Shown: piece by piece, positions 2 to 28,786 of the stretch
How positions within the stretch are numbered: position 1 is the first letter of the stretch
How the letters are laid out: the number at the start of each line of letters is the position of its first letter
NCBI RefSeq assembly: GCF_005696695.1
Contig: NZ_CP040006.1
Location: 420,001-452,000, forward strand
Length of the DNA stretch: 32,000 bases
DNA from: Schaalia odontolytica
Lineage (GTDB): Bacteria > Actinomycetota > Actinomycetes > Actinomycetales > Actinomycetaceae
Reading direction: 5' to 3'
Position numbers and translations under genes: made by a program
Notes under the pieces: generated by a model
The model's input: only the letters and a program-made list of their open reading frames with translations
Database searches by the model: none
What the model was told of the DNA's origin: nothing

Positions 2-982
2 ACACTGGGGTACCAGGCCGCCGCCTCCGCGTACATGATCCTTGCGACTGCCATCCGTGACCCGAAGAAACGAGGCCTCTACGTCGGCCTCATGTGCGCG
101 GCCTTCCAGGGCGGCACCGCAATCGGCATGCTGGCCGGCGGTATCCTCGCCGACATCAACTGGGCTCTGCTCCTCCTCATTCCCCTGGGTGGCCTCGCCT
201 GCTTGCCGATCATGGGGCGTCGCGTCCCCGCGCGCGCCCGCGCCGGGCGCGTCGACGTTGTCGGCCTCGCGATTTTCTCCTCCCTGGCCCTGCTGCTCAC
301 CCTGGTCGCCGCGAACCCGCACTGGTGGCTCATCGCGGGCCTCATCCTCGGCGGCTTCCTCTTCTGGCGCTACATCGGGCGTGCGCGCGCCCCCTTCATT
401 ACGCGTTCCTTCTTCACGAACGTGCCGTGGGCGCGCTCGATCAGCCTCATCCTGATCGTCTACTGCATGAACTTCACGGTCGCGCCCCTCATGAACGGCA
501 TCGGCGCCGCCAACTACGGGCTCACGCCCGCGCAGGTCTCCGTGCGCCTGCTGCCCGCCTACTGCGTCGCCCTGGCCACCGCCATGACGTCGGGCGCAGC
601 CATGTCGCGCATCGGGCGCGGCCGTACCGTGCGCGCGTGCGTCAGCCTCATCCTCACGGGTACCGTCCTTATCGCGCTGTGCATGAGCATGGGCCCGTGG
701 GTCATCACCGCCGCCATGTGCTTCATCTACGCGGGCTTCGGCGCCCTGTTCACGCCCATCTACGACACCGTGTTCGCGACCGTCGCTCCGGGCCAGAACG
801 GGCGCGCCGTCGCCATGAACGACCTCGCCATGCAGGGCAGTGCCGCGATCGGCATCGGCGTGTTCACGCCGATGCTCGCCTCGGGTGCCTTCCGGGCCAT
901 AGCCCTCATCTGCGTCGTCGCGGCAGCGACCGGCATCGCCGGCGACTGGCTGCACGAATACCTGTACCGCCGCGGGCGCTGA
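2..982 (+). CDS. MFS-type transporter, C-terminal ~325 codons (5' end lies upstream of the window)
   Basis: The frame of ORF 35..982 stays open back to nt 2. The translation is a series of G/A/L/I-rich hydrophobic helices separated by short R/K loops (GLYVGLMCAAFQGGTAIGMLAGGILA, WWLIAGLILGGFLFWRYIGR). Codon usage is backbone-like and GC3-rich. Confidence 0.7.
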   Translation, partial: TLGYQAAASAYMILATAIRDPKKRGLYVGLMCAAFQGGTAIGMLAGGILADINWALLLLIPLGGLACLPIMGRRVPARARAGRVDVVGLAIFSSLALLLTLVAANPHWWLIAGLILGGFLFWRYIGRARAPFITRSFFTNVPWARSISLILIVYCMNFTVAPLMNGIGAANYGLTPAQVSVRLLPAYCVALATAMTSGAAMSRIGRGRTVRACVSLILTGTVLIALCMSMGPWVITAAMCFIYAGFGALFTPIYDTVFATVAPGQNGRAVAMNDLAMQGSAAIGIGVFTPMLASGAFRAIALICVVAAATGIAGDWLHEYLYRRGR

Positions 983-1005
983 CGGCAGGGGAGCGCAGAG
1001 CAGCA

Positions 1006-1044
1006 CCGGCCTCGTTTTTAGGACAGGAGCAGCGCGAGCACGCG
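1006..1044. repeat. Left copy of a 39-nt imperfect direct repeat; orphan duplicate of the menA 3' terminus
   Basis: ccggcctcgtttttaggacaggagcagcgcgagcacgcg aligns without gaps to 4681-4719 (28 of the first 33 nt identical by hand). The minus strand reads ..RVLALLLS-stop versus the genuine menA end ..AALALVLS-stop, but no menA body adjoins it. Confidence 0.7.
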
Positions 1045-1059
1045 TGGTCGTGATGCCTG

Positions 1060-1683
1060 TCAGGTCGTGGGGGTAGGGATGAGCCAGTCGGGCCGGCGGC
1101 CCGGGATGTCGGCGAGCTGCTGAGGGTCGTCCGTTGATCCATCGGAGCTGAGCAATTCGGTCCCGTAGTCGAAGGAAGAACGCTTGGAGTCACGGATGTA
1201 GGCGCTGGCGCTAATCCCGTAGGTGGGGTTCCGTGCGATGATCCAAGTTAATTTTCCTTCGTTGTCTGTCATTTGTTCGTCCACCGTGACGGTGAAGCCG
1301 AGAGGGATCAGATGACTTTCAAACGCCGTCCGTACCTTGTCGACATTGTCTTCAAGAAAATAAATGGTTGGGGAATTGAGGATGTAGAGTGTTTGATCTC
1401 CCGTTGGTTGGCTGGAAATCCCATCTTCTCCATGGCGCAGCTCAAAGTTGTTCTCGTTGATGAGCTCGTTGCGTACCTGGATCAGGGTCGGCTCGATATC
1501 GCGTCCAAAGTCCTCGATGGAGTGCATCTGTCCTGCCTGCTGAAGCTGCTCAGCATGCCATGGATTCATCCCCGGAGTACCACCGAAGTACTCCGCGCAC
1601 GAGGCCGTGCACAGCGCCAGGAGGGCGCAGGCGAGGAACGCGAGAGGACGTGCTCCCCGGAGATCGGTTGCTCGTTGCATCAT
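1060..1683 (-). CDS. Lipoprotein paralog 1 (207 aa, most divergent copy); candidate immunity protein
   Basis: Signal peptide plus lipobox-like LLALCTASC. It shares FGG, PLGF and the C-terminal SDGS.DDP..L.D.PGR.PDW motifs with the two upstream paralogs. Its start overlaps the upstream stop (ATGA). Confidence 0.8.
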   Translation of the reverse strand: MMQRATDLRGARPLAFLACALLALCTASCAEYFGGTPGMNPWHAEQLQQAGQMHSIEDFGRDIEPTLIQVRNELINENNFELRHGEDGISSQPTGDQTLYILNSPTIYFLEDNVDKVRTAFESHLIPLGFTVTVDEQMTDNEGKLTWIIARNPTYGISASAYIRDSKRSSFDYGTELLSSDGSTDDPQQLADIPGRRPDWLIPTPTT

Positions 1684-2285
1684 CCCTGTCCTGAGGGCGG
1701 AAGGTTGGGGTCAAACCAGTCGGGGATGCGCCCGGGCTGGTCGATCAGCTGCTTGGGATCACCGTTGGATCCATCCGAGGGTGTGCCCTGTGTGTAGTAG
1801 TAGGTGGAGGTTTGCTCACCGAGCCGTGTCGTCGCCGAGACGACGGCCTGGTACTCCTCGTTGATCCATAGGTAGTCAACGATCTCAACTCCGTTGGACG
1901 TCCAGCGGTCTTCGGATAGCTCGAATCCGAGGGGGAGGAGACGTGCGCTGTAGGTGTCGCGGATGAGGTCGGTGTCCAGCTCGGTAAAGAAGAACATACG
2001 CGAATGGAAGGAATATAGGGTCTTTCCGTCCTCCATGTAGCGAGCGATGGAGTAGTTGTTCTTGTACGCCATGAAGTTCTCGGCTGTGACGAGCTCGTTG
2101 CGGGCGGCGATGATGGTGGGCTCGAGGTCACGTTGGAAAGCCTCGACGGATTTAACCTGGGGGCTAAGCGGACTCATGGATCCTCCAAAAAACGGTGCGC
2201 ACGAGGCCGTGCACAGCGCCAGGAGGGCGCAGGCGAGGAAGGTGAGAGGTCGTGCTCGTCGGTGTGCCGGTGCCTGCTGTGTCAT
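1680..2285 (-). CDS. Lipoprotein paralog 2 (201 aa); candidate immunity protein
   Basis: Signal peptide with LLALCTASC. It shares an identical 30-residue block PQVKSVEAFQRDLEPTIIAARNELVTAENF with paralog 3. ATGA overlaps at both ends. Confidence 0.85.
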   Translation of the reverse strand: MTQQAPAHRRARPLTFLACALLALCTASCAPFFGGSMSPLSPQVKSVEAFQRDLEPTIIAARNELVTAENFMAYKNNYSIARYMEDGKTLYSFHSRMFFFTELDTDLIRDTYSARLLPLGFELSEDRWTSNGVEIVDYLWINEEYQAVVSATTRLGEQTSTYYYTQGTPSDGSNGDPKQLIDQPGRIPDWFDPNLPPSGQG

Positions 2286-2860
2286 TTCTGATCTGCTGGA
2301 GGGAGGTTGGGGTCGAACCAGTCGGGGGTGCGCCCGGGCTGGTTGATCATCTTCATGGGATCACCGTTGGATCCGTCCGAGGGGGTGCCGACCGTGTAGT
2401 AGCGGGTAGAGGTTTGCTCGCCGAGACGTGACGTTGACACTACGGCAGCGTGGTACTCCTCGTTGGTCCAGAGGAGCTGGACAATATCCACCCCGTTGGA
2501 GGTCCATCGTTCCTCGGTTAGCTCGAATCCGAGGGGGAGGAGGTGCTTGTTGTAGGTGTCGCGGATATGGTCCGTATCCAGGTCGCTAAAGTAATACAGG
2601 CGAGTGTGGACGGAATACTGCGGGCCCTCGGCGGACCTGAAACTGTCGATGAAGTCTCCGTTTACGTAGGCAATGAAGTTCTCGGCGGTGACGAGCTCGT
2701 TGCGCGCGGCAATGATGGTGGGCTCGAGGTCGCGCTGGAAAGCCTCGACGGACTTTACCTGGGGGGCGGGTGACTGCATGAGTCCTCCAAAAAACGGTGC
2801 ACATGCTGCGCACAAGATGAGTGACAAAAACGTGAGAGGGATCGCGACGAGCTTTCTCAT
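2282..2860 (-). CDS. Lipoprotein paralog 3 (192 aa); candidate immunity protein
   Basis: Signal peptide with LSLILCAAC lipobox-like motif. Closely related to paralog 2. Its start overlaps the hydrolase stop (ATGA at 2857-2860). Confidence 0.85.
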   Translation of the reverse strand: MRKLVAIPLTFLSLILCAACAPFFGGLMQSPAPQVKSVEAFQRDLEPTIIAARNELVTAENFIAYVNGDFIDSFRSAEGPQYSVHTRLYYFSDLDTDHIRDTYNKHLLPLGFELTEERWTSNGVDIVQLLWTNEEYHAAVVSTSRLGEQTSTRYYTVGTPSDGSNGDPMKMINQPGRTPDWFDPNLPPADQK

Positions 2861-4509
2861 ACCTTCGGATTCCCTCCGATGACGCTAGCAATGTGCTTAT
2901 TCGCCTCGGTACCTTTCTTGAAATAAGCGCTATGTAGACCGAATGGGTCTGGATAGCGAACATCCCAGTCGTACCCAGGTACTTTTTTCCATACGATGGG
3001 GCCGACATCGCCCGAGAGATGCTTGTACCCGTCCATTTCTGTGGGGTTCTTTCCAAACATTACGTCTGGGCCGACACCTTGGACCATGTCGTTCACATAA
3101 GGGGCTGCACTGACGTACATGTGTCCTTCGGGAACGTGGAACTCGCCCACGTTCTGGACACCCGAGCCGGGCGAGCCGAATTGAACCAGGTCGTCGATGA
3201 CGCCGTCGCCGACAAGCGTTGCCGCTATACCAGCGGTGGTTGAGCCGTAGGAGTGGCTGGCGACAGTGATGTGTGCGTCGCCGGCCCCGTGCTCGCGCAC
3301 TGCGTCGATGCCGTTCAGGAAACTGGCGAGCTTGTGTGCGCCAAAGGTGGCCATCACGGTATTTGATGCTTCCACCACAGATGGGGGAGCGTCGTATCCA
3401 AAGAACTCGACCATCGCGACCTTTTCGCCAGGATTTGCTGCGTCTTTCGCTGCTTCTCGCATGACCGTAGCGTGACCGTCGTAATCGAGGATAGAGCCAC
3501 CTTCACTGTTACCTGCGACGCTGGTCGTCATACCGGGGACGATCACGCCGATGTGGTCGGCATCGTCGGGGTTATTCTGGGAAATTGCCGCGAGGACATT
3601 CGCTCCGGAGGTGTCGAGGGACATGAGGTAGCGGGGTACCCCGTCGCTGTCCTCCTTCGCCAGCGTATTTTCGATCTGCCTAATTGCGTGAACACGATTG
3701 CGGAGTCGATCCATCTCCGCGCGTTGCTCCTCTGTTGGGTTAGGACCGAGAGTCTGTTCGTAGCGTGCTGCTTCTCTCGTAACTTCCTTGCGGCGGATGG
3801 GCAGCATGATGCGATTTGCTTGATTGCGCGACGTGTAGTCGACGCCCTCGAGGTTGCCGATGACGTCCGGATGATGGTTGATCATCCACTGCTTGTCGTC
3901 GTCGGACAGGGAACTCCACCAGGATGCGACTTCCTGTGCAGAGGCTCCGGCAGGGGGAAGCGTGGGAGGTGCCTTGAGTCTGGCGGAGTAATTCACACCA
4001 TTATCGAACGTCCCTGCGCTCAGGGATGAGATCTTCTGCGAGAGAGAGTCGACGAGATCCTGAGCTTGCTTCAGTGCTTTGTTTACTCGCCGCTGTATCC
4101 GCTCCACCATCTGCGGAATTTCATCGAAGCCGTGCCCTTCCTTCATGAGCTGCTTGACTTGACCCCTATCTATTGACACGTTGCCAACTGAATCGATGGT
4201 CATGTGCCATGTGTTAGCCAGTTGCAGAGCATCCTCAACGTTCGCTCGAACCTCGTTGATTCCCTGTGCTCCAGCGCTGCAGATCTCGGCAATGCTGATC
4301 AGGTTATTCACTTTCAGTTCGATGGCTGAAAGCTGCTTGTTTAAGGCTTCCTGCGCCGCCTGAGCGGTTTGTCCAGAGCTGATCAGGCCTCCGACATTGG
4401 TCGCAAGAAAATCAGCTGCTGACTGCATTTGGCGCTGCTTGTGCTCACAACTGACCGCGTAACGTTGAAGCGGCGCCGACTCCCATTGCTGAATGTCTGC
4501 CCAGTTCAT
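2857..4509 (-). CDS. 550-aa two-domain protein: N-terminal ~190-aa helical domain with no signal peptide, plus C-terminal alpha/beta-hydrolase (Pfam PF06259/DUF1023-like from memory); candidate secreted lipase/esterase effector
   Basis: Nucleophile elbow HITVASHSYGSTTAG (GxSxG-type). Candidate acid in DDLVQFGSPG and His in FGLHSAYF near the C-terminus. The central WWSSLSDDDKQWMINHHPDVIGNLEGVDYTSRNQANR block is typical of that family as I recall it. The N-terminus is A/Q/L/E-rich with no hydrophobic leader. Confidence 0.8.
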   Translation of the reverse strand: MNWADIQQWESAPLQRYAVSCEHKQRQMQSAADFLATNVGGLISSGQTAQAAQEALNKQLSAIELKVNNLISIAEICSAGAQGINEVRANVEDALQLANTWHMTIDSVGNVSIDRGQVKQLMKEGHGFDEIPQMVERIQRRVNKALKQAQDLVDSLSQKISSLSAGTFDNGVNYSARLKAPPTLPPAGASAQEVASWWSSLSDDDKQWMINHHPDVIGNLEGVDYTSRNQANRIMLPIRRKEVTREAARYEQTLGPNPTEEQRAEMDRLRNRVHAIRQIENTLAKEDSDGVPRYLMSLDTSGANVLAAISQNNPDDADHIGVIVPGMTTSVAGNSEGGSILDYDGHATVMREAAKDAANPGEKVAMVEFFGYDAPPSVVEASNTVMATFGAHKLASFLNGIDAVREHGAGDAHITVASHSYGSTTAGIAATLVGDGVIDDLVQFGSPGSGVQNVGEFHVPEGHMYVSAAPYVNDMVQGVGPDVMFGKNPTEMDGYKHLSGDVGPIVWKKVPGYDWDVRYPDPFGLHSAYFKKGTEANKHIASVIGGNPKV

Positions 4510-4583
4510 GGCTGGATCACCGAACCCAGGGCGACCGTGCCCATGGGGGCGTGCACGCCCGGCGTGTAGGAATCATTGCTCAT
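4506..4583 (-). CDS. Possible 25-codon leader/partner ORF (MSNDSYTPGVHAPMGTVALGSVIQP)
   Basis: ATG at 4581-4583 (minus) is preceded by GGAGG with a 6-nt spacer. Its TGA overlaps the ATG of the 550-aa gene (ATGA), and that gene has no recognisable SD of its own. Confidence 0.35.
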   Translation of the reverse strand: MSNDSYTPGVHAPMGTVALGSVIQP

Positions 4584-4680
4584 CGTGGCCTCCGCTAAAC
4601 GGTGAGTAGTGTTGTAGGTCATCCTATCTGACAGGTGGTCGTTTTTCACTACTCGGGGAGGACTTGTGAACGGCGGGACC

Positions 4681-4719
4681 CCGGCCTCGTTCCTAGGAGA
4701 GGACCAGTGCGAGTGCAGC
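4681..4719. repeat. Right copy of the 39-nt direct repeat (genuine menA 3' end plus 12 nt downstream)
   Basis: ccggcctcgttcctaggagaggaccagtgcgagtgcagc; see the left copy at 1006-1044. Confidence 0.7.
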
Positions 4720-5586
4720 CAACAGCGCCCACGCCAGGGTGAAGAACCCCGTGTTGCGCAGCACCGTGATGAGGTCGCGGCCCGAGGCGCCGGTAAGGAC
4801 CGGGAGGCTCACGCCGGCCGCCCACGCTCCCGCGCCCACGCCCAGCGCGATCGTCGCCAGGGGGTGCAGTCGGACCGCGATGCCCAGCACGATGATCAAC
4901 GCGACGGGAAGCCACGCGCACGCCGCAAACGCCCAGCGCGACGGGCGTTCGCCCAGGCGCACGGCCGCCGTCATCTTGCCTGACTCGCGGTCCGTCGGAA
5001 TATCTCGGATGTTATTGGCCATCAGCAGCGCCACCGATAGCAGGCCCAGCGCCGACGCGCTCATCCACAGCCACCACGGAGCCGACTGCACCTGCGTCCA
5101 CGCCGTGCCCACGCACGCGAGGAGGCCGAAGAACACGAAGACCATCAGCTCGGACAGGCCGATGCCCATGTACGCATATGGGTGCTTACCGCCCGTGTAG
5201 AACCACGCGGCCACGACCGCCGCGGCACCCGCAGCGATCAGCCACCAGGTGCCCGACACGGCAACCAGGGCGAGGCCCGCGACCCCGGCCACCGCGAACG
5301 ACCCCAGCGCGGCCGCCAGGACTGTCTTCGGCTTGGCGAGGCCGCCGCCCGTCAGGCGCGCAGGCCCCTTGCGGTTGTCGTCCGTGCCGCGAATGCCATC
5401 CGAATAGTCGTTCGCGTAATTGACCCCCACCTGCAGGGCCAGCGCCACCAGCAGCGCCAGGGCAGCGCGCGCCGCGCTGAAACCCCCCAGGTAGTGCGCG
5501 GCCGCAGACCCCACAATCACGGGCGCGGCGGCGGCAGGGAGGGTGCGCAGGCGAGCGCCTTCAATCCAGTCAGAAACGGAAGCCAT
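4693..5586 (-). CDS. menA: 1,4-dihydroxy-2-naphthoate polyprenyltransferase
   Basis: UbiA-type polytopic membrane protein. MASVSDWIEGARLRTLPAAAAPVIVG, NDYSDGIRGTDD and NNIRDIPTDRESGK match the two Asp-rich prenyltransferase motifs. Start chosen at the internal Met (5584-5586); the ORF-track N-terminal extension is Arg-rich junk. Confidence 0.88.
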   Translation of the reverse strand: MASVSDWIEGARLRTLPAAAAPVIVGSAAAHYLGGFSAARAALALLVALALQVGVNYANDYSDGIRGTDDNRKGPARLTGGGLAKPKTVLAAALGSFAVAGVAGLALVAVSGTWWLIAAGAAAVVAAWFYTGGKHPYAYMGIGLSELMVFVFFGLLACVGTAWTQVQSAPWWLWMSASALGLLSVALLMANNIRDIPTDRESGKMTAAVRLGERPSRWAFAACAWLPVALIIVLGIAVRLHPLATIALGVGAGAWAAGVSLPVLTGASGRDLITVLRNTGFFTLAWALLAALALVLS

Positions 5587-5629: not shown

Positions 5630-6952
5630 TTAGCGCACCCACTCCCGCTCGGTGCCCGAGGCCTCGGCCGCAGCCTGCGCGGCGGCGGCGCGATCGATCT
5701 TGTCGAAGCCCAGGTAGGGGAGGGACTCGACGGCCACAATCCGGCGAGGAGCCTGCGCGCGCCCGATGTGCGCCGCCGCGTGCTCGCGAATCGCCGAGCC
5801 GAGCTCCGCCATCTCCAGCGAATCCGACGGCATCTGATCAACAACCACGAGCGCGGTCACCACGTGGCCCCACTTCTCGTCCGGGGTGCCCAAAATCCAC
5901 GCGTCCGACACGCCCTCGAAGGAACGCACCGCGCGGCGCACCGGCCCCGGCGCGATCGACAGGCCGCCCGAGACGATCACGTCGTCCGCGCGGCCGCGCA
6001 CCTCCACCGTCCCCGAAGCCCGGATAATGCCCAGGTCCCCGGTGAGCAGCCAACGGTGGCCGCCCTCGTCGAAGAAGGGACTCTCCGCGTCCAGGTAGCG
6101 CGTCATGAGCGTCGGGCCGTGGATCGCCAGGCGCGTGCGCCCGTCCCAATCCACCGCGCGCACCGACGTGCCCGGCAGGGGCTTGCCGTCGTACACGCAG
6201 CCGCCCGCCGTCTCCGTCATGCCGTAGGTAAGGCGCACCTTCAGGCCAGCCTCGGTGGCGCGTGCGAGCAACTGCTGGTTGGTCGCCGCCCCACCCACGA
6301 GGATCGCCGCCAGCGAGCGCATCGGGCCCACGACCTCCTCGCCAGCGTCGAGGCACTGGGCGAGCTGGGTGGGCACGAGCGACAGGTAGCCGGGCATGTC
6401 GTCCTGTGTGGCGCCCTGAATCGCAGGCAGGAGAGCGCGGGGGTCAAATCCCTCGGAGGTGTCGACGATCTGCGGGTTCGTCTCCGCGACGGCCGCGCGC
6501 AGCAGGGTCATCGCGCCCGCGATGTGGTGCGCCGGCATCGCCAGGATCCAACGTCCCGGGCCATCCAGGGCCAGCTCGGTCGCCTTCGCCGAGGCCATGA
6601 GCGCCTCGATCGACAGGCCAACGAGGCGCGGGCTGCCCGCGCTCGACCCCGACGTCGGGACGACCAGGTCAATACCGTCGAAGAAATTCGGGTCCGCGTT
6701 GATCGCCTCGGCGAGGCCGGGGTAGCGATCCTCCGGGAAAGCCTCCTCGGGCGTCACCGCGGAGCCGCGCAGCGTCGCCGGGGGCACATCCTCCGGGGCG
6801 CGCAGGACGACAACCGTGTGCGGCGCCGGATGATTGGGGTCCGCCTGGCGCTCCTCGTACAGCTCAACGAGCTTGTGGATCGACGCATTCGCCAGGGCGA
6901 CAGCGCCAATAGCGGTGCCTCCGGGCACAACAAGAAGTCGCGGCGCAGCCAT
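5630..6952 (-). CDS. menE: o-succinylbenzoate-CoA ligase (adenylate-forming enzyme)
   Basis: AMP-binding family motifs (TSGSSGSPRLV, YGMTET, TGDLG). Lies directly upstream of menA on the same strand. Start at 6950-6952 is preceded by GGGAGG with a 6-nt spacer. Confidence 0.85.
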   Translation of the reverse strand: MAAPRLLVVPGGTAIGAVALANASIHKLVELYEERQADPNHPAPHTVVVLRAPEDVPPATLRGSAVTPEEAFPEDRYPGLAEAINADPNFFDGIDLVVPTSGSSAGSPRLVGLSIEALMASAKATELALDGPGRWILAMPAHHIAGAMTLLRAAVAETNPQIVDTSEGFDPRALLPAIQGATQDDMPGYLSLVPTQLAQCLDAGEEVVGPMRSLAAILVGGAATNQQLLARATEAGLKVRLTYGMTETAGGCVYDGKPLPGTSVRAVDWDGRTRLAIHGPTLMTRYLDAESPFFDEGGHRWLLTGDLGIIRASGTVEVRGRADDVIVSGGLSIAPGPVRRAVRSFEGVSDAWILGTPDEKWGHVVTALVVVDQMPSDSLEMAELGSAIREHAAAHIGRAQAPRRIVAVESLPYLGFDKIDRAAAAQAAAEASGTEREWVR

Positions 6953-8900: not shown

Positions 8901-9010
8901 CAATTTTGCACGTAATTCCCCTGCGACTGTTTCAAATCTTTAATGCGCCTCGTTGGAATTGCAACGTTTTCAGCGTTTATTGAAACTTCTTTCAATCGAA
9001 TTACGTGCAA
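8901..9010. repeat. Hairpin module 1 (MITE-like or structured-RNA-like)
   Basis: ttgcacgtaattc (8906-8918) is perfectly complementary to gaattacgtgcaa (8998-9010), with a 79-nt spacer. The left arm caattttgcacgtaattcccct matches the module 2 left arm at 19/22 positions. Confidence 0.6.
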
Positions 9011-9133
9011 CTTTGCGGGGGTGCTGCCTCGGTGGGCCCACACCAACGCATGCAGGAGCGATCTTTCTTTCGCGGTCCACCACGCCTCATTGGTGCGCCT
9101 TTTTGGGCCGTATCTGGTGTGTTTGTGCCTCGC

Positions 9134-9491
9134 CATGAAACCGACAGCACCTTTGCTGGCGCTTCCTTGCGGTGGCATGAAACCGCCATCACCATTGCGA
9201 GCGATAAAGAGTCCTTTTCGAGCTATTTTGTGCGAGCAAAGGTTATGGCGGTTTCAACGGGGTGTGCAGTGCGGCGTGCAAAGGTGTTGGCGGTTTCAAA
9301 TTTGCCTCGTCATCGTGCCCTGTGCGCGAAAACGTTCGCCCTGCTCGGCCTGGTGTGGGTGTGAGCGTGAAAAAGTTCGTCCAGCGTGGTCGAAATGACC
9401 CAAAATCGGCGTTTTGTTGCGTGCTGGGCGAATTTTTTCGTGGAAATGCTGTGGGATGGGCTGCGCTGGGAGAACTTTTTCGCGGAAGAGC
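9134..9491. repeat. Array of phased repeat pairs with dyad symmetry
   Basis: catgaaaccg(a/c)ca at 9134 and 9176. tggcggtttca at 9246 and 9288, the inverse of the first pair. gaaaa(c/a)gttcg at 9328 and 9369. gctggg.gaa.tttttcg.ggaa at 9423 and 9465, which contains the inverse of gaaaaagttc. Each pair is spaced 41-42 nt. Confidence 0.7.
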
Positions 9492-9565
9492 CACTGCATG
9501 CTCTCATTGTGAGCGTGTGTATGTGCGTCCGCAGTCCTTGCGACGGCCGCTCATCAGCCGGGGAC

Positions 9566-9681
9566 CAATTTCGCATGCAATTCCCCTCAAGGTATTTCAA
9601 GCTATGAACTCAAACCGTTGAGATTCTGCCGTTTTAGTGCCGTCGTGCATGTGGGCTCTGTGGGAATTGCATGCGAAATTG
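9566..9681. repeat. Hairpin module 2 (MITE-like or structured-RNA-like)
   Basis: Perfect 20-nt inverted repeat caatttcgcatgcaattccc (9566-9585) / gggaattgcatgcgaaattg (9662-9681) with a 76-nt spacer. The spacer is partly homologous to the module 1 spacer (cgttgga.att..c.cgtttt.ag.g). Confidence 0.7.
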
Positions 9682-9840
9682 TGGAAGAGGTGGCCTGGAC
9701 TGGTTGTGTGGACCGGGTGTTTTGAGGGGTGGTTGTTAGTGGTGTTGTGCCCATAGGTGCGCGTACCGGTTGGGAAGAACCAGTCCAGTGCGGTGGCTGG
9801 GCCGACCGGCAGGCCCGAAGCGGCGCCGCGACGGAACGTG

Positions 9841-10977
9841 CTACGCGGCCCGGGATGCGATAAAGCCCTGCAAGGCGATGACGCCGGCGCCGCGCGACCA
9901 GGCCTCGTTGGAGCCATCGGAGAGGGTGACGCGAATCGATGAGGCGCGCGGGTCGCGCACCTCTGCGATGCCGGCCCGCAGAGCCTCGCCGCTCAGCGAT
10001 GCGAGCGCGACACCCTCACCGCCGACGATCACCAGTTCCGGAGCCGTGAGAGACGCGACCAGGCCGATGAGCCTGCCGAGGGCGCGCCCCGAGGCCGCCA
10101 AAATCGCCGTCACCGCAGGGTGTTTGTCGGAGGCGAGAGCGATGACGTCGCTCCACTCGAGCGGACGTCCGAGCGCGGCCGACGCGTCGCGGCAGATCGC
10201 GGGCGTCGTCAGCATGGCCTCCGCGCAGCCTCGGTGCCCCTGGGAGCAGATGGGGCCGAGTGGATCGAGTGGCCAGTGGCCGACGAGGCCGATGCCCGAG
10301 TCCTCGTTCTCCAGGCGTGCCCCGTTGGCGACACATCCGTATCCCACGCCCACGCCGACCGTGATAACCGCGAAGTTGGAATGTCCGGTGCCCGACCCGA
10401 ACCAGTGCTGGATCTGCGTGTAGGCGGACAGGTCGTTGGCGACGAAGGTAGGCAGGTGGGTGGCCTCGGAGACGAGGGAGGCGAGTGGAACGTTGTTCCA
10501 CTTGAGGAAGGGGGCCGACTCGACGGCGCCGTCAGCGTTCACGATGCCGCCGACGGCAATGCCGATCGCGTCGATGCGGTAGGCCGAGCGGGCGAGGTGC
10601 GCCAGGTCCGCGATTGCGCGGACAACGCGGATGGGGGTGAGGGATTCGAGGGGGATGCGGTAGGAGTCGCGGGGAGTCGCCTTCAAGTCGATGACGGTGG
10701 CGTCGAGGGCACTGTCCGTCAGCTTGATGCCGAGGAAGTAGTGCGAGGAGGGGACGACGTCGAGGGGGATCGTGGGGCGGCCGGAGGTTCGCTGGGTGGC
10801 CTCGGGGACCTCGGCGAGGAGACCGGAGGAGATGAGCTCCGTCGAGATGCGCGTGAGCGTCGCGGGGGCCAGGCCGAGGCGTCGCGCCAGCTCAGCACGG
10901 CCGAGTGGGCCGTGGATGAGGACTTCGAGAGCGACCGCGGAAGCGAGCTCGTCTTTGGGCTGCCAGGTCATGACCAT
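9841..10977 (-). CDS. ROK-family transcriptional regulator
   Basis: N-terminal winged-helix region (GPLGRAELARRLGLAPATLTRISTELISSGLL) followed by a ROK sugar-kinase-like fold with the Cys/His cluster GHWPLDPLGPICSQGHRGCAE. Start at Met 10975-10977 or 10969-10971; AAGGA fits the latter better. The longer ORF-track extension crosses the promoter region. Confidence 0.85.
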   Translation of the reverse strand: MVMTWQPKDELASAVALEVLIHGPLGRAELARRLGLAPATLTRISTELISSGLLAEVPEATQRTSGRPTIPLDVVPSSHYFLGIKLTDSALDATVIDLKATPRDSYRIPLESLTPIRVVRAIADLAHLARSAYRIDAIGIAVGGIVNADGAVESAPFLKWNNVPLASLVSEATHLPTFVANDLSAYTQIQHWFGSGTGHSNFAVITVGVGVGYGCVANGARLENEDSGIGLVGHWPLDPLGPICSQGHRGCAEAMLTTPAICRDASAALGRPLEWSDVIALASDKHPAVTAILAASGRALGRLIGLVASLTAPELVIVGGEGVALASLSGEALRAGIAEVRDPRASSIRVTLSDGSNEAWSRGAGVIALQGFIASRAA

Positions 10978-11029
10978 TCCTTTCTGGTGAAAGAAAGAGT
11001 ACATGCAAATTTCAATTTTGCCTAGCTTA

Positions 11030-11062
11030 TTGACATAACTAATTTTGCGTGGTGAAATTAGT
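11030..11062 (+). promoter_or_regulatory. Candidate sigma-70-type promoter of the ABC operon with an overlapping inverted-repeat operator
   Basis: TTGACA (11030-11035), 17-nt spacer, TGAAAT (11053-11058) with an upstream TG (11050-11051). Inverted repeat actaattt (11038-11045) / aaattagt (11055-11062) spans the spacer and the -10. Confidence 0.45.
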
Positions 11063-11097
11063 GGCAAGCGGCCAATGGTGGTCGCGATCACGAGAAA

Positions 11098-12408
11098 GTG
11101 CACAGTGCAATGAAGCAGAAGCGTCTCCTTACCGTCGGTGTCACCCTTTTCGCTGCGGCCTCGATGCTTGCAGCCTGTGGTGGCAACACAGCCGACCAGT
11201 CATCGTCTTCCGGATCCGGCTCCTCGACCGTCGAACTCACCCTGTGGGGCACGTACGGTGCGGGCTCCAACAGCGCCCAGAAGGACGCGTTGGAAAAGGA
11301 AATCATCCCCGCCTTCGAGAAGGCCAACCCCGGAATCACCATCAAGTACGTCGACATGCCCTACGACGGCCTCAAGCAGAAGCTCACGACCGGCGCCGCG
11401 GCCGGGGAGCTGCCCGACCTGATCCGTACCGACCTCGGTTGGAACGCGCAGTTCGCCAAGCTGGGTGTCCTCAAGCAGCTCGACGGCAACATGCCGAATT
11501 ACGAGGCCTTGGCGTCCAAGGTCTACCCGGGCCTGCTCGGCACGACCCTGTACAACGGCCACCACTACGGCCTGCCCCTGGACACGAACACGCGCGTGCT
11601 CATCTCCAACCCCGATGCCCTCGCCAAGCTTGGCGTCGACAAGGCCCCTGAGACTTTCGATGAACTGAAGGACCTCGCCGCTAAGGCGAAGGACGCGGGC
11701 GGTTCGGTCTACGCCTTCGCCGACGGGGACATCTCGCAGTGGAACATCATGCCGTGGATCTGGAGCGCGGGCGGCGACATTTCCGATCCCGACCAGACCA
11801 AGGCCTCGGGCTACCTGGACTCCGATAAGTCCGTGGCCGGCGTCCAGTTCCTCGTCGACCTGTACCAGCAGGGGCAGATCCCCAACGCGATCATCGGCAA
11901 CGAGGGCGCGACCAAGACCCAGGACGGCATGCCGAACGGCGAGTACGCGACGATCCTCGACGGCCCGTGGATGGACCAGATCTGGGCGGGCTCGTATCCG
12001 GACTTCAAGCCCACCTACTCTAAGGTTCCCGCCGGCGAGGGCGGATCGATCTCGGTCGTCGGCGGCGAGTCCATCGTCATCACGGAACAGACCAAGGATC
12101 TCGAGGCCTCGTACAAGTTCCTCGAGTTCACCCAGTCGCGCGAGTTCCAGCTGCCGATGAGTAAGGCCGGCCAGATGACGGTCGTTGCCGAGTACGCGGC
12201 CGAGGAGGCCGAGGCGACACCGGGCACCAAGATCTTCTCCGAGCAGCTCAAGACAGCGAAGTCTCGCCTCTCCATCCCTGATGCTGGGAAGGTCGACGAG
12301 ATCTTCAAGACCGAGCTGACCCCCGCCTTCGAAGGCAAGGTGACGGTTAAGGAGGCCCTGACAAAGGCAGCGCAGCAGATCGACCCGCTCCTGAGCGCCG
12401 CCAAGTAA
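11098..12408 (+). CDS. ABC transporter extracellular sugar-binding lipoprotein
   Basis: Signal peptide plus lipobox MLAACGG and a Ser-rich linker. Family-1 solute-binding protein features throughout. The true start is probably ATG 11110 (MKQKRLL..). Confidence 0.85.
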   Translation: MHSAMKQKRLLTVGVTLFAAASMLAACGGNTADQSSSSGSGSSTVELTLWGTYGAGSNSAQKDALEKEIIPAFEKANPGITIKYVDMPYDGLKQKLTTGAAAGELPDLIRTDLGWNAQFAKLGVLKQLDGNMPNYEALASKVYPGLLGTTLYNGHHYGLPLDTNTRVLISNPDALAKLGVDKAPETFDELKDLAAKAKDAGGSVYAFADGDISQWNIMPWIWSAGGDISDPDQTKASGYLDSDKSVAGVQFLVDLYQQGQIPNAIIGNEGATKTQDGMPNGEYATILDGPWMDQIWAGSYPDFKPTYSKVPAGEGGSISVVGGESIVITEQTKDLEASYKFLEFTQSREFQLPMSKAGQMTVVAEYAAEEAEATPGTKIFSEQLKTAKSRLSIPDAGKVDEIFKTELTPAFEGKVTVKEALTKAAQQIDPLLSAAK

Positions 12409-12475
12409 CCCGACGTCGCTCCACTCACCGGGCCCGGCCCCCACGCGCGGGGCTGGGCCCGGGAAAGGACAACTC

Positions 12476-13411
12476 ATGAGCACCCCCACCGCGCACGAGG
12501 CCGTGGCACCTCGGGCGCGTCGGCGTTCCTCCCGGAGGAACCCGGTGGCCCCCTACCTCTTCTTGGCCCCGGGCATGATCCTGTTCGCCCTGTGCATCCT
12601 GTACCCCATGGTGCGGTCGGGGCAGATGAGCTTTTACGACTGGAACATCGTGAAGGGCTCGAACTCGGACTTCGTTGGCCTGGACAATTACGTCAAGGCA
12701 TTCCATGATCCGTCCTTTTGGACGGGGCTGGGAAACTCCGGGATCTATATGGCTTTGACGGTGCCCCCGCAGATCATCCTCGGCCTCGCCGTCGCGATGC
12801 TGCTGCGCTCGAAGGCGCCGCTCCAGCCGCTGTTTCGGGTGCTCTACTACCTGCCCGTAGTCACGTCCTGGGTGGTCGTATCCCTGCTCTTCAAGTACCT
12901 GTTCGCTGACCAGGGGCTCATCAACTACATGTTGGGCAGTGCCCACCTCGGCGCGGGGGACACCTCGTGGCTGTCGAACCGTTGGACCGCCATGATCGCG
13001 ATCTGCGCGCTGGGCGTGTGGAAGGGCATCGGCTGGTCGATGATGATCTTCCTTGCCGCCCTCCAGGGGGTGCCGAAGGAGCTGGAGGAGGCCGCCCTCG
13101 TCGATGGGGCGAACTGGTGGCAGCGCTTCAAAGCCGTGACCGTTCCGGCGATCTGGCCGGCCACCGTCTTCGTCATCGTCATGCTGGTGATCGGTGGCCT
13201 CAACGTCTTCACGTCGGTGCTGCTCATGACGAAGGGCGGGCCCAACGGCCAGACCGAGGTGCTGATGACCTACATGTACCGCCTCGCGTTCTCCGACCTC
13301 AACTTCGGGTATGGCTCGGCGATCGCCGTCGTCCTGACGATCCTCGTGTTCATCATTTCGATTGTTCAGCTCAAAGTACTGAACCGCGACGACGAAAGGG
13401 CGGGAGCATGA
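12476..13411 (+). CDS. Carbohydrate ABC transporter permease (MalF/UgpA-like)
   Basis: Six TM segments. EAA-type loop LQGVPKELEEAALVDGANWWQRFKAVTVP. SD gaaagga lies upstream. Confidence 0.88.
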   Translation: MSTPTAHEAVAPRARRRSSRRNPVAPYLFLAPGMILFALCILYPMVRSGQMSFYDWNIVKGSNSDFVGLDNYVKAFHDPSFWTGLGNSGIYMALTVPPQIILGLAVAMLLRSKAPLQPLFRVLYYLPVVTSWVVVSLLFKYLFADQGLINYMLGSAHLGAGDTSWLSNRWTAMIAICALGVWKGIGWSMMIFLAALQGVPKELEEAALVDGANWWQRFKAVTVPAIWPATVFVIVMLVIGGLNVFTSVLLMTKGGPNGQTEVLMTYMYRLAFSDLNFGYGSAIAVVLTILVFIISIVQLKVLNRDDERAGA

Positions 13412-14253
13412 GCACGTCACGCAAGACGATTCGCGCCGCGGGAACGTCGCTGCGCTTCGTCGTCCTGACGGTGGGGGCGATCGTTATGATCCTGCCCTTC
13501 GCCTACATGGTGTCAACGTCCTTCAAGCCGCAGGCTTACGTCCTGGAGACGCCCCCGAAGTTCATCCCCGACCCGGGCACGGTCGACAACTTCGTGCAAG
13601 CGTGGACGACGCAGGATTTTTCCCGCTACGCCTTGAACTCAGCGTTTGTGTCCGTGACCTCGACGGTGCTGGCCGTGTGGCTCTCCTCGATGATGGCCTA
13701 CGCGTTCGCGCGCTTCGACTTCCCGGGCAAGGAGTGGCTCTTCCGCGCCCTCCTCCTCGGCCTCATGATCCCCTCGATGATGCTGATCATCCCGCAGTTC
13801 GTGCTCACCAAGCAGCTGCACCTCATCGACAACCTGTGGGCCCTCGTGCTGTTCTACGTCTCGGGAAACCTGGCGCTCAACACCTTCCTGCTGCGCAGTT
13901 TCTTCGAGGGGATCCCGTGTGAGCTCGACGAGGCCATGGAGGTCGACGGCGCGAACGTGTGGACCCGCTACTGGCGCCTCGCGATGCCGCTGGCCCGGCC
14001 CGCGCTGGCGACGACCGTCATCTTCACCTTCCTGGCGACCTGGGATGAGTTTGCCTGGGCCCTCACGGTCATTTCGACGGAAACGAAACGCACCCTCCCG
14101 ATCGCCATTCAGCTGTTCCACGGGCAAAACTCCACGCAGTGGGGGCTCGTGTTTGCCGCGTCCCTCATCGCGATCCTCCCCGTTATCGTTGTGTACCTGA
14201 TCTTCCAGCGTCACTTCGTCGCGGGCCTGACCGCAGGAGCCGTGAAAGGATGA
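13408..14253 (+). CDS. Carbohydrate ABC transporter permease (MalG/UgpE-like)
   Basis: Start ATG 13408-13410 overlaps the upstream stop (ATGA). EAA loop FEGIPCELDEAMEVDGANVWTRYWRLAMP. The ORF-track frame 12967..14253 is trimmed to this start. Confidence 0.88.
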   Translation: MSTSRKTIRAAGTSLRFVVLTVGAIVMILPFAYMVSTSFKPQAYVLETPPKFIPDPGTVDNFVQAWTTQDFSRYALNSAFVSVTSTVLAVWLSSMMAYAFARFDFPGKEWLFRALLLGLMIPSMMLIIPQFVLTKQLHLIDNLWALVLFYVSGNLALNTFLLRSFFEGIPCELDEAMEVDGANVWTRYWRLAMPLARPALATTVIFTFLATWDEFAWALTVISTETKRTLPIAIQLFHGQNSTQWGLVFAASLIAILPVIVVYLIFQRHFVAGLTAGAVKG

Positions 14254-15821
14254 CTCCCTTGCTCCTCCCCACACAATCCGTCTACCTGCCCGGCCAGGCG
14301 GTCCTCGTCGAAGCCTCCCACCCGGGCGACCTCGTCGTCACCCACCTGGGCGAGACCGTGCGCGAGGTCCCGTGCGAGCGCCCCGGCCTCGTCGAACTGG
14401 GAGGACTGAGCGTCGGCGGGTACGGTGTCGCCCAGCCGTCGACGGGCGCGTCGAGCGCCGTGCAGGTGTGTGCCTCGGCGTCGGATCGGCTGCGCTACGG
14501 TTTCGTTGCCTCCTTCCGCCCGGGAAAGGACGCCGAGGCCGTGGCCCGTTTCGCGCGTCGCCTGCACCTGACCGGCATTCAGTTCTACGACTGGGCGTAT
14601 CGGCACGCTGACCTGCTGGGCGGGGGAGAGGAGTACCTCGACGCCCTTGATCAGCCGATTTCCCTGGCGACCGTGCGCGCCCTCATCGAGGCGCTGCGCG
14701 CGGTGGGCACGCGGTCGATTGGCTACGCGGCCGTGTACGGCGTCGGCAATGACGAGTGGGAACAGTGGGAGGATGCGGCCCTGCTGGATGCGGTGGGGGA
14801 GCCGTACTCGCTCGCTGACTTCCTGCGCATCGTCGATCCCGCCCATCCGCGCTGGCTTGAGCACTTCGCCGCCGACGTTGCGGCTGCCGCGCGCGAGGTC
14901 GGCTTCGATGGCTTCCACCTCGACCAGTACGGCTACCCGAAGATGGCTGTCCGCCCCGACGGCGAGATCGTCGACGTGGCCTCATCCTTCGACACCCTCA
15001 TCCGAGGGGTGCGTGAGGCGGTGCCCAGCGCGACGCTCGTGTTCAACAACGTCAACGATTTCCCGACCTGGTCCTCGCCGGCAGCCCCTCAGGACGCGGT
15101 CTATATCGAGCCCTGGGAGCCCGTCACCACGTACGAGGCCCTGGCTCGGGTGGTAACGAGGGCGCGGCTCGTCGCGGGCGGGAAGCCCGTCGTCCTGGCG
15201 GCCTATCAGTCCATCTACGACAAGGTTGCCCGGGACGTGGCCGACGCATCGACGCGCCTGACGATGGCGACGCTCTTCTCACACGGTGCCACGCAGCTCC
15301 TCGCCGGAGAAGACGGCCGACTCCTCGTCGATCCGTACTACGTGCGCAACATGCCCGCCGAGGACGAGACCCTCGACATGCTCGCTAGCTGGTACGACTT
15401 CCTCGTCGCGAACGACGAGATCCTCGTGGACCCCGGGATTGTTGACGTGACGGCCTCGTACGTGGGCGCATACAACGCGGATATCGATGTGTCCTTCGAT
15501 GCGGCGCCCGTGTGCTGGGAGGCGTCCCCGGGCTGCGTGTGGCGGCGCATCACCCGCGCAGGCGACGCCCTGGTTGTCCACCTCATCAACCTCGTAGGCC
15601 AGTCCGACACGGTATGGGACGGCCCCCACCGCCCGGTGATCGCGCTGCGAGGCGGTACGCTGCGTCTGAAACCCCTGTTCGGGCGCGTGCCGCGGGTGTG
15701 TGCGGCGGATCCCGACTCGGGTTCGACTCTGATCCCCCTGGACGTGCGCATCGTCGACGGCCAGGCCGTTGTTTCCCTCCCCGACCTCAACGTATGGCAG
15801 GTGCTCCATGTTCTTCTGTAA
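14250..15821 (+). CDS. Glycoside hydrolase family 66-like protein (dextranase / cycloisomalto-oligosaccharide-active family), no signal peptide
   Basis: GIQFYDWAYRHADLL and GFDGFHLDQYGYPK resemble the conserved GH66 blocks as I recall them. ATGA-coupled to the permease gene (start 14250-14252). Confidence 0.6.
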   Translation: MTPLLLPTQSVYLPGQAVLVEASHPGDLVVTHLGETVREVPCERPGLVELGGLSVGGYGVAQPSTGASSAVQVCASASDRLRYGFVASFRPGKDAEAVARFARRLHLTGIQFYDWAYRHADLLGGGEEYLDALDQPISLATVRALIEALRAVGTRSIGYAAVYGVGNDEWEQWEDAALLDAVGEPYSLADFLRIVDPAHPRWLEHFAADVAAAAREVGFDGFHLDQYGYPKMAVRPDGEIVDVASSFDTLIRGVREAVPSATLVFNNVNDFPTWSSPAAPQDAVYIEPWEPVTTYEALARVVTRARLVAGGKPVVLAAYQSIYDKVARDVADASTRLTMATLFSHGATQLLAGEDGRLLVDPYYVRNMPAEDETLDMLASWYDFLVANDEILVDPGIVDVTASYVGAYNADIDVSFDAAPVCWEASPGCVWRRITRAGDALVVHLINLVGQSDTVWDGPHRPVIALRGGTLRLKPLFGRVPRVCAADPDSGSTLIPLDVRIVDGQAVVSLPDLNVWQVLHVLL

Positions 15822-28319: not shown

Positions 28320-28336
28320 GTGTCGTCCTTAAAATC

Positions 28337-28786
28337 TCAGAACTCGGGCATTGCGCCGGCAGCCGTAGGAGCATCATCTGGCTGCGCACTTGGGGCTGTA
28401 GAAGAAGTAGCAGTTGATCCAGCGGTTGAAGCGGCGGCGGCTGCGACTGAGGGGTCTGAGTTAAGTGCACGATTGATTGCCTCAAGCACCGCTGCATTGG
28501 CTTCCTCGCTACTAACGGCCTCCCGAACAGCATCCGTGAGGTTCGTCTGGAATGTATCGAAGATTTTGCGCTCGTCCACAAGCATCTCATCAACAGACGA
28601 GAAGAATCGCACTGCGCTGTTACGAAAATCCTGCGCGCCTTGCTCATTAGTCCATCGGGTTACAGTTTGGGCACCATTGAGCGAGCTCGCAGCGTCATTG
28701 GATTTGTTGAGAGCCGTCCCGCCCTCATCCATATCGCCGTTTGTCTGAGCGTGTTTTTCCTTATCGAAGCCATAATCGGCACTCAT
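28337..28786 (-). CDS. 149-aa small acidic helical protein with Ala/Ser/Thr-rich tail; function unknown (candidate partner/chaperone of the 505-aa protein)
   Basis: AGGAGA with a 6-nt spacer before the ATG. Only a 17-nt gap to the next gene. No signal peptide and no canonical W-x-G (it has RWTNEQG). Confidence 0.7.
   Translation of the reverse strand: MSADYGFDKEKHAQTNGDMDEGGTALNKSNDAASSLNGAQTVTRWTNEQGAQDFRNSAVRFFSSVDEMLVDERKIFDTFQTNLTDAVREAVSSEEANAAVLEAINRALNSDPSVAAAAASTAGSTATSSTAPSAQPDDAPTAAGAMPEF

Follow-up and report, generated by a model that had tools for sequence, protein, structure and literature searches.

The 3' end of the menaquinone gene menA in Schaalia odontolytica carries a small block of foreign genes which we interpret, with moderate confidence in the reading as a whole, as a horizontally acquired polymorphic toxin-immunity island, its toxin being probably secreted by the Esx system and the island itself being built by homologous and illegitimate recombination. 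The block, hereafter the cassette (positions 1039-4680), separates menA from the convergent gene of a major facilitator superfamily (MFS) transporter. It was studied within a stretch of 32,000 nucleotides (nt) from contig NZ_CP040006.1 (positions 420,001-452,000 of the forward strand), which is called the window below and whose numbering is used throughout. Over its first 9 kb the window shows 0 mismatches with LLVT01000001.1, the draft genome of strain XH001. This strain, Actinomyces (now Schaalia) odontolytica subsp. actinosynbacter, is the host of Saccharibacterium TM7x (PMC4742689). The cassette is extremely polymorphic: in public assemblies the alleles of the predicted toxin range from 100% down to 66% identity, all those examined lying at the same menA-MFS site, and across strains this site holds 0, 1 or 2 cassettes with 1-5 genes of the DUF4853 family, the predicted immunity genes, in each of them.

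The cassette is bracketed by two copies of a sequence that belongs to the end of menA. The right copy (4681-4713, minus strand) is the functional menA terminus and comprises the last codons of the gene (..AALALVLS), its stop codon TAG at 4693-4695 and 12 nt downstream. The left copy (1006-1038, minus strand) is an orphan menA 3' end which consists of the last 8 codons, the stop codon and 6 nt downstream, and still reads ..LALLLS-stop. It is found 23 nt past the stop codon of the MFS gene (980-982) and 15 nt before the stop codon (1060-1062) of the first cassette gene. An ungapped alignment of 1006-1044 with 4681-4719 gives 29/39 identical positions, 28/33 over the first 33, and the comparison of related loci fixes the duplicated unit at exactly 33 nt (CTCGCGCTGnTCCTGTCCTAGnAACGAGGCCGG on the menA-sense strand), with no match outside the unit. 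In two occupied sites of relatives, L107 and L081, the copies are identical at 31/33 and 29/33 positions, respectively. The stretch of 23-35 nt from the MFS stop codon to the left copy corresponds by homology to the native spacer between menA and the MFS gene. Its remnant in the window (983-1005) is the positional counterpart of the spacers at L001, L110 and L111, three empty sites described below, with which it has the motif CTGCGCTSCC in common. At the other end, 3' of the right copy, the likeness to the empty-site sequence and the native spacer stops 12-16 nt past the menA stop codon.

Relative to close relatives the block is an insertion. In three Actinomyces/Schaalia relatives (L001, L110 and L111), the flanks of which are 84-94% identical to the window, the gap between menA and the convergent MFS gene measures 31-41 nt and the 33-mer occurs once, and the BLAST alignments of these empty sites to the window fall into two pieces that overlap on exactly the 33-mer. 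L001 comes from a genome collection, where a scan with a menA pattern gave 80 loci, mostly of distant Actinobacteria, among which L001-L003 were useful; L110 and L111 come from a metagenome pattern search designed for empty sites. The MFS gene is kept beside empty and occupied sites alike. Moreover, the block is compositionally foreign. The GC content of 1045-4680 is 0.576 compared with 0.691 and 0.678 in the flanks, with local counts of 28/60 at 4141-4200 and 46/60 at 5221-5280, and the GC content at third codon positions (GC3) is 0.64-0.75 in the four cassette genes compared with 0.85-0.92 in 16 backbone genes.

An earlier note on this DNA had already claimed an insertion at the menA 3' end, marked by an imperfect repeat with 28/33 matches, the right copy of which was taken for the real menA terminus and the left one for an orphan 23 nt past the MFS gene and 15 nt from the first cassette gene. 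Recomputation returned the same alignment and counts, the stop codon at 4693-4695 and both distances, and the three empty junctions bear out the insertion. The same note held that relatives devoid of the cassette should not carry both copies, and L001, L110 and L111 indeed carry one; that the cassette should not be universally conserved with a backbone-like composition, as is borne out by the existence of empty sites and by the GC3 values; and that its GC content was lower, for which the 60-nt counts proved exact. The ATGA coupling that it had described is found at all four gene junctions within the block, which read TCAT on the plus strand (that is, an ATGA overlap on the minus strand) at 1680-1683, 2282-2285, 2857-2860 and 4506-4509. 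It had also reported no tRNA gene, and a search of the window found none.

The direction of the change is less clear-cut. The cassette may have been ancestral to the S. odontolytica complex, in which case the three empty sites would be precise deletions between the menA tail and the orphan, a history that we regard as possible and somewhat unlikely. In neighbour-joining trees of the flanks, the empty site L111 lies nearer to the main occupied cluster than do the occupied sites L104 and L106, and the empty sites, which form no clade sister to all occupied sites, are interleaved with the latter. The 33-nt repeat could in addition support deletion, and the single copies of L001 and L111 have bases in common with each of the two window copies. 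However, the GC3 of the cassette is 15-25 points under that of the backbone, which implies that the lineage acquired it from outside at one time or another, and two more distant Actinomycetaceae, L002 (5486-6554) and L003 (8921-10709), lack the cassette and also the MFS and PfkB genes behind menA. Instead, menA is directly followed there by genes for a 130-aa (amino acid) membrane protein and a histidine phosphatase. This layout suggests that, in the S. odontolytica complex, MFS and PfkB genes had themselves been added behind menA at an earlier stage, and hence that the region behind menA gained genes more than once. Cassettes also move between backgrounds, which equally explains their patchy distribution. 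Since the empty sites do not form a clean sister group, some gains by transfer between lineages or some losses by deletion must have occurred. An ancestral cassette would in any case bear on the history of the empty alleles only and leaves the nature of the cassette unchanged.

The interpretation as a toxin-immunity island starts from the largest gene of the cassette (2857-4509, minus strand). It encodes the predicted toxin, a protein of 550 aa in which an N-terminal helical domain (aa 1 to about 165) and a linker precede a hydrolase domain. The latter matches PF06259 (Abhydrolase_8) over aa 304-481 with an E value of 1e-24 and 87.6 bits (cut-off 20.5) and is equipped with an HSYGS nucleophile motif, the serine of which (S420) is invariant, together with H526, across an alignment of 21 alleles. 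In the AlphaFold2 (AF2) model, with a mean predicted local distance difference test score (pLDDT) of 67, helices at 13-42, 49-100 and 130-164 are followed by an alpha/beta-hydrolase fold, and a Foldseek search of the PDB with this model returned cutinases, polyethylene terephthalate (PET) hydrolases/PETases and esterases at E values of about 3e-4. No hydrophobic N-terminal signal peptide of the Sec/Tat type is seen in the sequence of the 550-aa protein. Its N-terminal 175 aa define a family of small size, to which 26 of 1.84 billion cluster representatives belong. Ten full-length relatives sharing this domain were scanned: seven have PF06259, two (P0138 and P0141) have Ntox44 (PF15607) and one (P0135) has no significant domain. 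The association of one N-terminal module with alternative toxin domains is a hallmark of polymorphic toxins (PMC3482391). The toxin alleles are also mosaic among strains. NCBIfam and PADLOC scans provided no name for the cassette proteins, PDB sequence searches with them yielded marginal lipase and EsxA/B matches only, and in the literature naming PF06259 nothing on the function of this family was found.

Downstream of the toxin gene, three minus-strand genes encode DUF4853 lipoproteins which we predict to be immunity proteins: gene a (2282-2860, 192 aa; PF16145, E 4.2e-37), coupled to the toxin gene at 2857-2860; gene b (1680-2285, 201 aa; PF16145, E 5.2e-38), with an ATGA overlap on both sides; and gene c (1060-1683, 207 aa; PF16145, E 2.2e-42). 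All three proteins open with a conserved signal peptide (..RRGARPLALLACALLALCTASC followed by A) that has a near-invariant cysteine, Cys29 in the gene c product. The AF2 model of the gene c product (pLDDT 83) has its best PDB match in 4mjg (E 2e-5), the solved structure of an A. odontolytica DUF4853 protein without known function, and the next-ranked lipoprotein match is LppA of M. tuberculosis. A literature search found no paper naming DUF4853. Public annotations of the DUF4853 genes differ in the start chosen, some including the signal peptide (192-207 aa) and others beginning at an internal Met just past it (164-165 aa). As this Met lies 7-10 residues past the lipobox Cys in all three paralogues, a cytoplasmic isoform is conceivable.

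The gene that follows the toxin belongs to the DUF4853 family in every complete locus fetched; it is of the b type in the other five cassettes compared and of the a type in the window. In L107, a toxin that is 67% identical to that of the window is adjoined by one extra DUF4853 gene, behind which the a/b/c-type set of the window is kept. At the protein level, the a- and c-type genes are 98-100% identical to those of the window and the b-type gene 83%. As far as gene content can tell, this arrangement is the pattern of accumulated immunity genes. The locus is hypervariable compared with its surroundings: in the same L107, the toxin N-terminal region is 67% identical to the window at the nucleotide level and the flanks 95-97%.

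It could be argued that the 550-aa protein is an ordinary secreted or cell-associated esterase or lipase, serving in nutrition or envelope remodelling, with the DUF4853 proteins acting as helpers or being unrelated neighbours. After all, PF06259 is an uncharacterised family, the Foldseek matches are generic cutinases and esterases, the structure of DUF4853 is solved and its function is not, no literature on it having been found, and 0/4 cassette proteins match a PADLOC defence model. Such a housekeeping role nevertheless appears improbable in view of the extreme allelic and copy-number variation at one site between conserved flanks. Moreover, the N-terminal domain is common to Ntox44 toxins, the enzyme is devoid of a signal peptide where its partners have lipoprotein signals, the operon is tightly coupled, and the architecture parallels that of described lipase and hydrolase toxins of type VII secretion systems (T7SS).

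Export of the predicted toxin by the Esx route is likely. A functional Esx system that limits Saccharibacteria has been described in S. odontolytica (F0309), with AesA and AesB as substrates (2026 preprint, PMC13622651). In Actinomycetota, T7SS toxins consist of a helical bundle and a toxin domain, alpha/beta hydrolases being among the commonest payloads, and the corresponding immunity proteins carry lipoprotein signals when the target is extracellular (PMC13444075). With the N-terminal helices of its AF2 model and no Sec/Tat signal in its sequence, the predicted toxin conforms to a trait of Esx substrates, a helical bundle of 110-180 aa at an N-terminus devoid of such a signal. Furthermore, on the Mycolicibacterium plasmid pTY66_01 a distant homologue of the hydrolase gene directly follows a gene annotated as 'type VII secretion target' and has an overlap with a small gene downstream of it.

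The window contains a second island of low GC content at 25633-28786 (minus strand; GC3 0.51-0.59), located between a DUF4832 gene and ubiE/menF, 22 kb from the cassette. Its genes encode a 149-aa helical protein, a 505-aa protein and an S8 protease. With its helical N-terminus, Gly-rich region and charged tail carrying EGYVNP, the 505-aa protein has the architecture of AesB (PMC13622651). The best NCBIfam match of the S8 protease is the T7SS mycosin TIGR03921, at 145 bits and thus under the cut-off of 278.75. No eccC gene was found within 10 kb of the AesB-like and mycosin-like genes.

Recombination between strains, and not an integrase, probably put the cassette in place. Over 3275 nt (1262-4536), L081 and loci like it do not differ from the window, as compared with about 96 mismatches in the other 3.7 kb compared; in L081 the cassette core is 100% identical and the flanks 95-97%. 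The last ~60 nt of menA exist as two alleles, A (..AALALVLS-stop) and B (..AAVALVIS-stop with an 8-nt insertion past the stop codon). The B tail is common to L101 and L104, the menA bodies of which are just 91.6% identical, and by such comparisons the menA tail belongs to the exchanged unit. The tail alleles (L101 6680-6750, L104 6740-6811, L115 3940-4015) do not track the phylogeny of the rest of the gene.

Two loci, L114 (5716-11877) and L115 (4186-12620), hold two complete cassettes in tandem at the menA-MFS site, about 8.6 kb in all. The two are separated by a ~140-nt menA-tail copy, comprising the last ~120 nt of menA, after which come a second promoter and leader. This internal tail copy is fused to a truncated DUF4853 start, which in L115 consists of the first ~12 codons of the gene. 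Similarly, the distal spacers of L104 and L115 are truncated DUF4853 starts, with alignment scores of 42-59 compared with a shuffle maximum of 26-30; the same test is borderline for L087 (27 versus 26). In the window, the minus-strand junction stretch (1039-1059) that joins the last DUF4853 gene to the orphan may be a decayed DUF4853 5' end. Together with the orphan, the junction stretch of L107 reads MRYTRPLVLALLLS before its stop codon and resembles a DUF4853 signal peptide. At the window and L107 junctions, a truncated DUF4853 start is no more than suggestive.

From these structures the following pathway can be proposed as the simplest. The site would be a recombination hotspot, at which cassette alleles pass between strains by homologous recombination via the conserved flanks. 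The incoming DNA would have carried a menA tail, a cassette and the start of a further DUF4853 gene, and would have been anchored by homology in menA, its far end being joined illegitimately within the resident menA tail at the short similarity CTCGCG..CT..CTCCTG. The last 8 codons of the resident gene, its stop codon and the spacer would thereby be left as an orphan and the 33-nt direct repeat would be the scar of the event, the imperfect identity of its copies (28-31/33) reflecting the alleles of donor and recipient. Such a course would amount to homology-facilitated illegitimate recombination, which is known in naturally transformable bacteria. Once formed, the orphan could pair with the true tail, and the outcome would be either the addition of a second cassette to the stack, the state of L114 and L115, or an exact deletion of the cassette. 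The same structure would be given by a Campbell-type integration of a circle with a 33-nt tail.

A site-specific mechanism has to be weighed against this recombination pathway. The cassette could be what is left of an integrative island, in which an attP site with the menA 3' end generated attL and attR, and from which the integrase and most of the element were lost, unless the cassette was mobilised in trans. In accordance with such an eroded island, the bounding direct repeats include a gene 3' end with its stop codon, one copy is seen at empty sites, the base composition of the block is foreign, and the type-B menA tail of L101 and L104 has the look of a replacement of the last ~60 nt brought in by an element. 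Among the traits of integrative elements, the direct repeats at both ends and the single copy at empty sites are thus found here; a recombinase and a constant core are not. Indeed, no integrase, transposase or tRNA gene is present in the window cassette or in ~25 related occupied loci, including those with two cassettes, and searches of phages, plasmids and viral contigs gave no match to cassette DNA, to the repeat as a 23-mer or 33-mer, or to the toxin. Distant protein homologues of the cassette do exist on actinobacterial plasmids. In addition, the left copy is absent (no match of at least 24/33) from the L084/L088/L089, L087, L101-L103 and L104-L106 haplotypes, the repeat measures 33 or ~140 nt elsewhere, unlike a fixed att core, and its inner boundary falls in a truncated DUF4853 gene. 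We thus consider an eroded island quite improbable. Because the repeat varies in length and the junctions lie within cassette genes, homologous and illegitimate recombination fits better than a site-specific recombinase.

The earlier note had taken the repeats for attL/attR-like products of a site-specific or duplicative insertion. The duplicative insertion at the menA 3' end stands; the att/integrase mechanism is not supported and the evidence favours recombination, given the missing recombinase at ~25 loci, the inconstant left copy and the two repeat lengths. Its remark that the cassette has no integrase or transposase extends to those ~25 occupied loci. A transposon or insertion sequence was also examined and rejected: no transposase domain is present, no inverted repeat spans the ends among the 25 longest pairs listed, and the duplication is 33 nt long and imperfect. 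Inspection by eye and a repeat search revealed no convincing terminal inverted repeats or hairpins at the cassette ends.

That the 33-nt repeat might be a chance or convergent likeness between two GC-rich stretches coding for Leu/Ala-rich peptides, as menA tails and DUF4853 signal peptides do from similar codons in a region with many 20-35-nt repeats at 70-80% identity, is hardly credible and appears effectively refuted by the sequence comparisons: the match of 28/33 stands against best values of 16-23 in 300 random box pairs (120 x 180 nt, equal spacing, elsewhere in the window), it takes in the stop codon and noncoding bases beyond, it rises to 31/33 in L107, the native-spacer homologue follows the left copy, and it is precisely at the repeat that the empty-site alignments are interrupted. 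With a degenerate 33-mer consensus, 2 matches are obtained in the window, which are both known copies, and 0 in 100 shuffles.

Besides the interleaving of empty and occupied sites, a number of observations weigh against the proposed Esx-linked toxin-immunity island. The N-terminal profile of the toxin aligns in register with EsxB/EsxA at E values of 0.08-0.15, which is sub-threshold and not significant. Partner genes of ~100 aa have been described for distally encoded Esx substrates (PMC13622651, PMC13444075). No such WXG100/Tap/Lap-like gene of ~100 aa adjoins the toxin gene, which has upstream of it only an open reading frame (ORF) of 27-38 aa and then menA. Likewise, BLASTP and hhalign revealed no similarity between the toxin N-terminus and the AesB-like protein of the window. 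In the absence of an adjoining partner gene and of any such similarity, the Esx route is likely, not established. The confidence of the toxin model is modest (pLDDT 67), with 45-85 in the N-terminal helical region and poor prediction of the first 60 residues. There is no clean co-variation between the toxin allele and the type of the adjacent DUF4853 gene. Concerning the recombination pathway, the loci with an identical cassette were fetched by exact identity of the toxin protein, a choice that biases the comparison of the toxin gene towards identity, and not that of the 1.6 kb of DUF4853 genes enclosed with it, and the truncated DUF4853 start is not significant at the left junction of the window, nor is it in L107.

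Taken as a toxin-immunity island, the cassette would work as follows. A single operon, transcribed from the cassette-borne upstream region, would express the short leader ORF and the 550-aa effector. The N-terminal helical domain of the effector would direct its export without a Sec signal, most likely via Esx/type VII, and the C-terminal Ser-His alpha/beta hydrolase, of the esterase/lipase type, would damage the envelope of neighbouring cells. The three DUF4853 proteins, as cell-surface lipoproteins, would neutralise the strain's own toxin and allelic toxins of other strains.

A more far-reaching version of this idea, which is tentative and in our view rather unlikely to hold in full, would see in the cassette a lipase effector system exported via Esx by XH001, the Saccharibacteria host, and in DUF4853 a new immunity family, with targets that include the membrane of competing Schaalia or of the epibiont, and with orphan menA tails serving as reusable landing pads on which cassettes are stacked or shed by homologous recombination without a mobility enzyme. 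The first cultured Saccharibacterium has XH001 as its model host, and a polymorphic candidate effector with its immunity array provides a concrete locus for work on Esx and epibionts. If true, the toxin-immunity reading would assign a first function to DUF4853, whose structure 4MJG was solved with its role so far unassigned, and also a function to the actinomycete branch of PF06259. The locus also offers a clear, datable example of a toxin island whose assembly and reassembly at the 3' end of a housekeeping gene seem to have involved recombination only.

The remaining parts of the cassette lie between the toxin gene and menA. A putative short leader ORF (4506-4590, minus strand) of 27 aa from an ATG at 4590, or 38 aa from 4622, is preceded by GGAGG and ATGA-coupled to the toxin gene. 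It is kept in all haplotypes examined and some annotations call a gene of 31-38 aa here. It could encode a leader peptide for translational coupling or regulation. The peptide (4506-4622, minus strand) contains MSNDSYTPGvHAPMGtVALGSVIQP, and the L104 copy has an internal duplication of 7 codons. Upstream of it, ~90 nt of cassette-borne sequence (4591-4680, minus strand) are kept in all occupied haplotypes and repeated before the second L115 cassette, and are presumed to contain the promoter and 5' untranslated region. A scan with the sigma-70 consensus found no promoter-like site in this region, so its promoter role is deduced only. The matches returned by a terminator scan sit within coding sequence. 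Hairpins with a T-run at 2196-2215 and 2797-2813 (minus strand) fall within the parts of DUF4853 genes b and a that code for the signal peptide (..CAPFFGG..) and are probably a by-product of the coding sequence.

On either side, the cassette is flanked by backbone genes. On the left, the 3' part of the MFS transporter gene (35-982, plus strand; PF07690, E 2.3e-12; GC3 0.915) is convergent with menA. On the right, menA itself (4693-5586, minus strand; PF01040, E 1.4e-24; GC3 0.869) encodes a UbiA-family prenyltransferase and is followed by a menE-like ligase gene, given as 5630-6952 in public records, the longest ORF extending to 7039. Farther along, a block of genes for a ROK regulator, a sugar ATP-binding cassette (ABC) transporter and a GH66 (dextranase-like) enzyme occupies about 9400-15800, between a YkuD gene and alpha-amylase/men genes. 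The block is present in the window, L083 and L085, and absent from the other eight loci compared, in which the amylase gene comes directly after YkuD. A stretch of low GC content (9000-9750) lies at its edge.

The closest parallels to the cassette are the Eat-type Esx toxin loci of Actinomycetota (Benedict et al. 2026, PMC13444075), which likewise combine an N-terminal helical domain with a C-terminal enzyme, often a hydrolase, and have downstream immunity genes that vary in number from locus to locus and carry lipoprotein signals when the target is extracellular. However, Tap-like genes of ~100 aa are found upstream there, in the place of which the cassette has a leader ORF of 27-38 aa, and the N-terminal domain of the predicted cassette toxin represents a separate small family (26 representatives). 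Their hosts are Mycobacteriales, whereas that of the cassette is an oral member of the Actinomycetaceae. AesA and AesB of S. odontolytica F0309 (Wang et al. 2026 preprint, PMC13622651) stem from the same species complex and are also predicted Esx substrates encoded away from the esx cluster. Nevertheless, AesB has a disordered Gly-rich C-terminus and no enzyme domain, and no similarity of the AesB-like protein to the cassette N-terminal domain was detected; the main text of that preprint names no hydrolase or lipase.

In TslA of S. aureus (T7SSb, PMC10730906), a lipase-type toxin is likewise combined with a helical targeting domain, in the reverse order to that of the cassette toxin, with the lipase at the N-terminus and an LXG-like domain at the C-terminus. 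The TslA-TilA pair belongs to another phylum and another T7SS subtype and has no sequence relationship with the cassette. TslA reportedly acts from outside the cell and is neutralised by membrane-anchored TilA lipoproteins encoded in tandem arrays of variable copy number, the immunity family being DUF576 and not DUF4853.

With polymorphic toxins and their orphan modules, as in contact-dependent inhibition (CDI) and Rhs orphan arrays (Zhang et al. 2012, PMC3482391), the cassette has in common a conserved N-terminal module with alternative C-terminal toxins, predicted immunity genes directly downstream, the piling up of extra genes of this kind and fragments displaced by recombination. The orphan differs in being a menA tail or the truncated start of an immunity gene rather than a toxin tip, and whole toxin genes are swapped rather than tips only, though the alleles are mosaic. 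As in att-flanked islands at gene 3' ends, an imperfect repeat that includes the gene 3' end brackets DNA of lower GC content and empty sites have one copy; unlike these, the cassette has no integrase or constant core, its repeat is variable in length or absent, and the insert measures just 3.6 kb. The locus extends a known pattern to a new genus and does not overturn current ideas.

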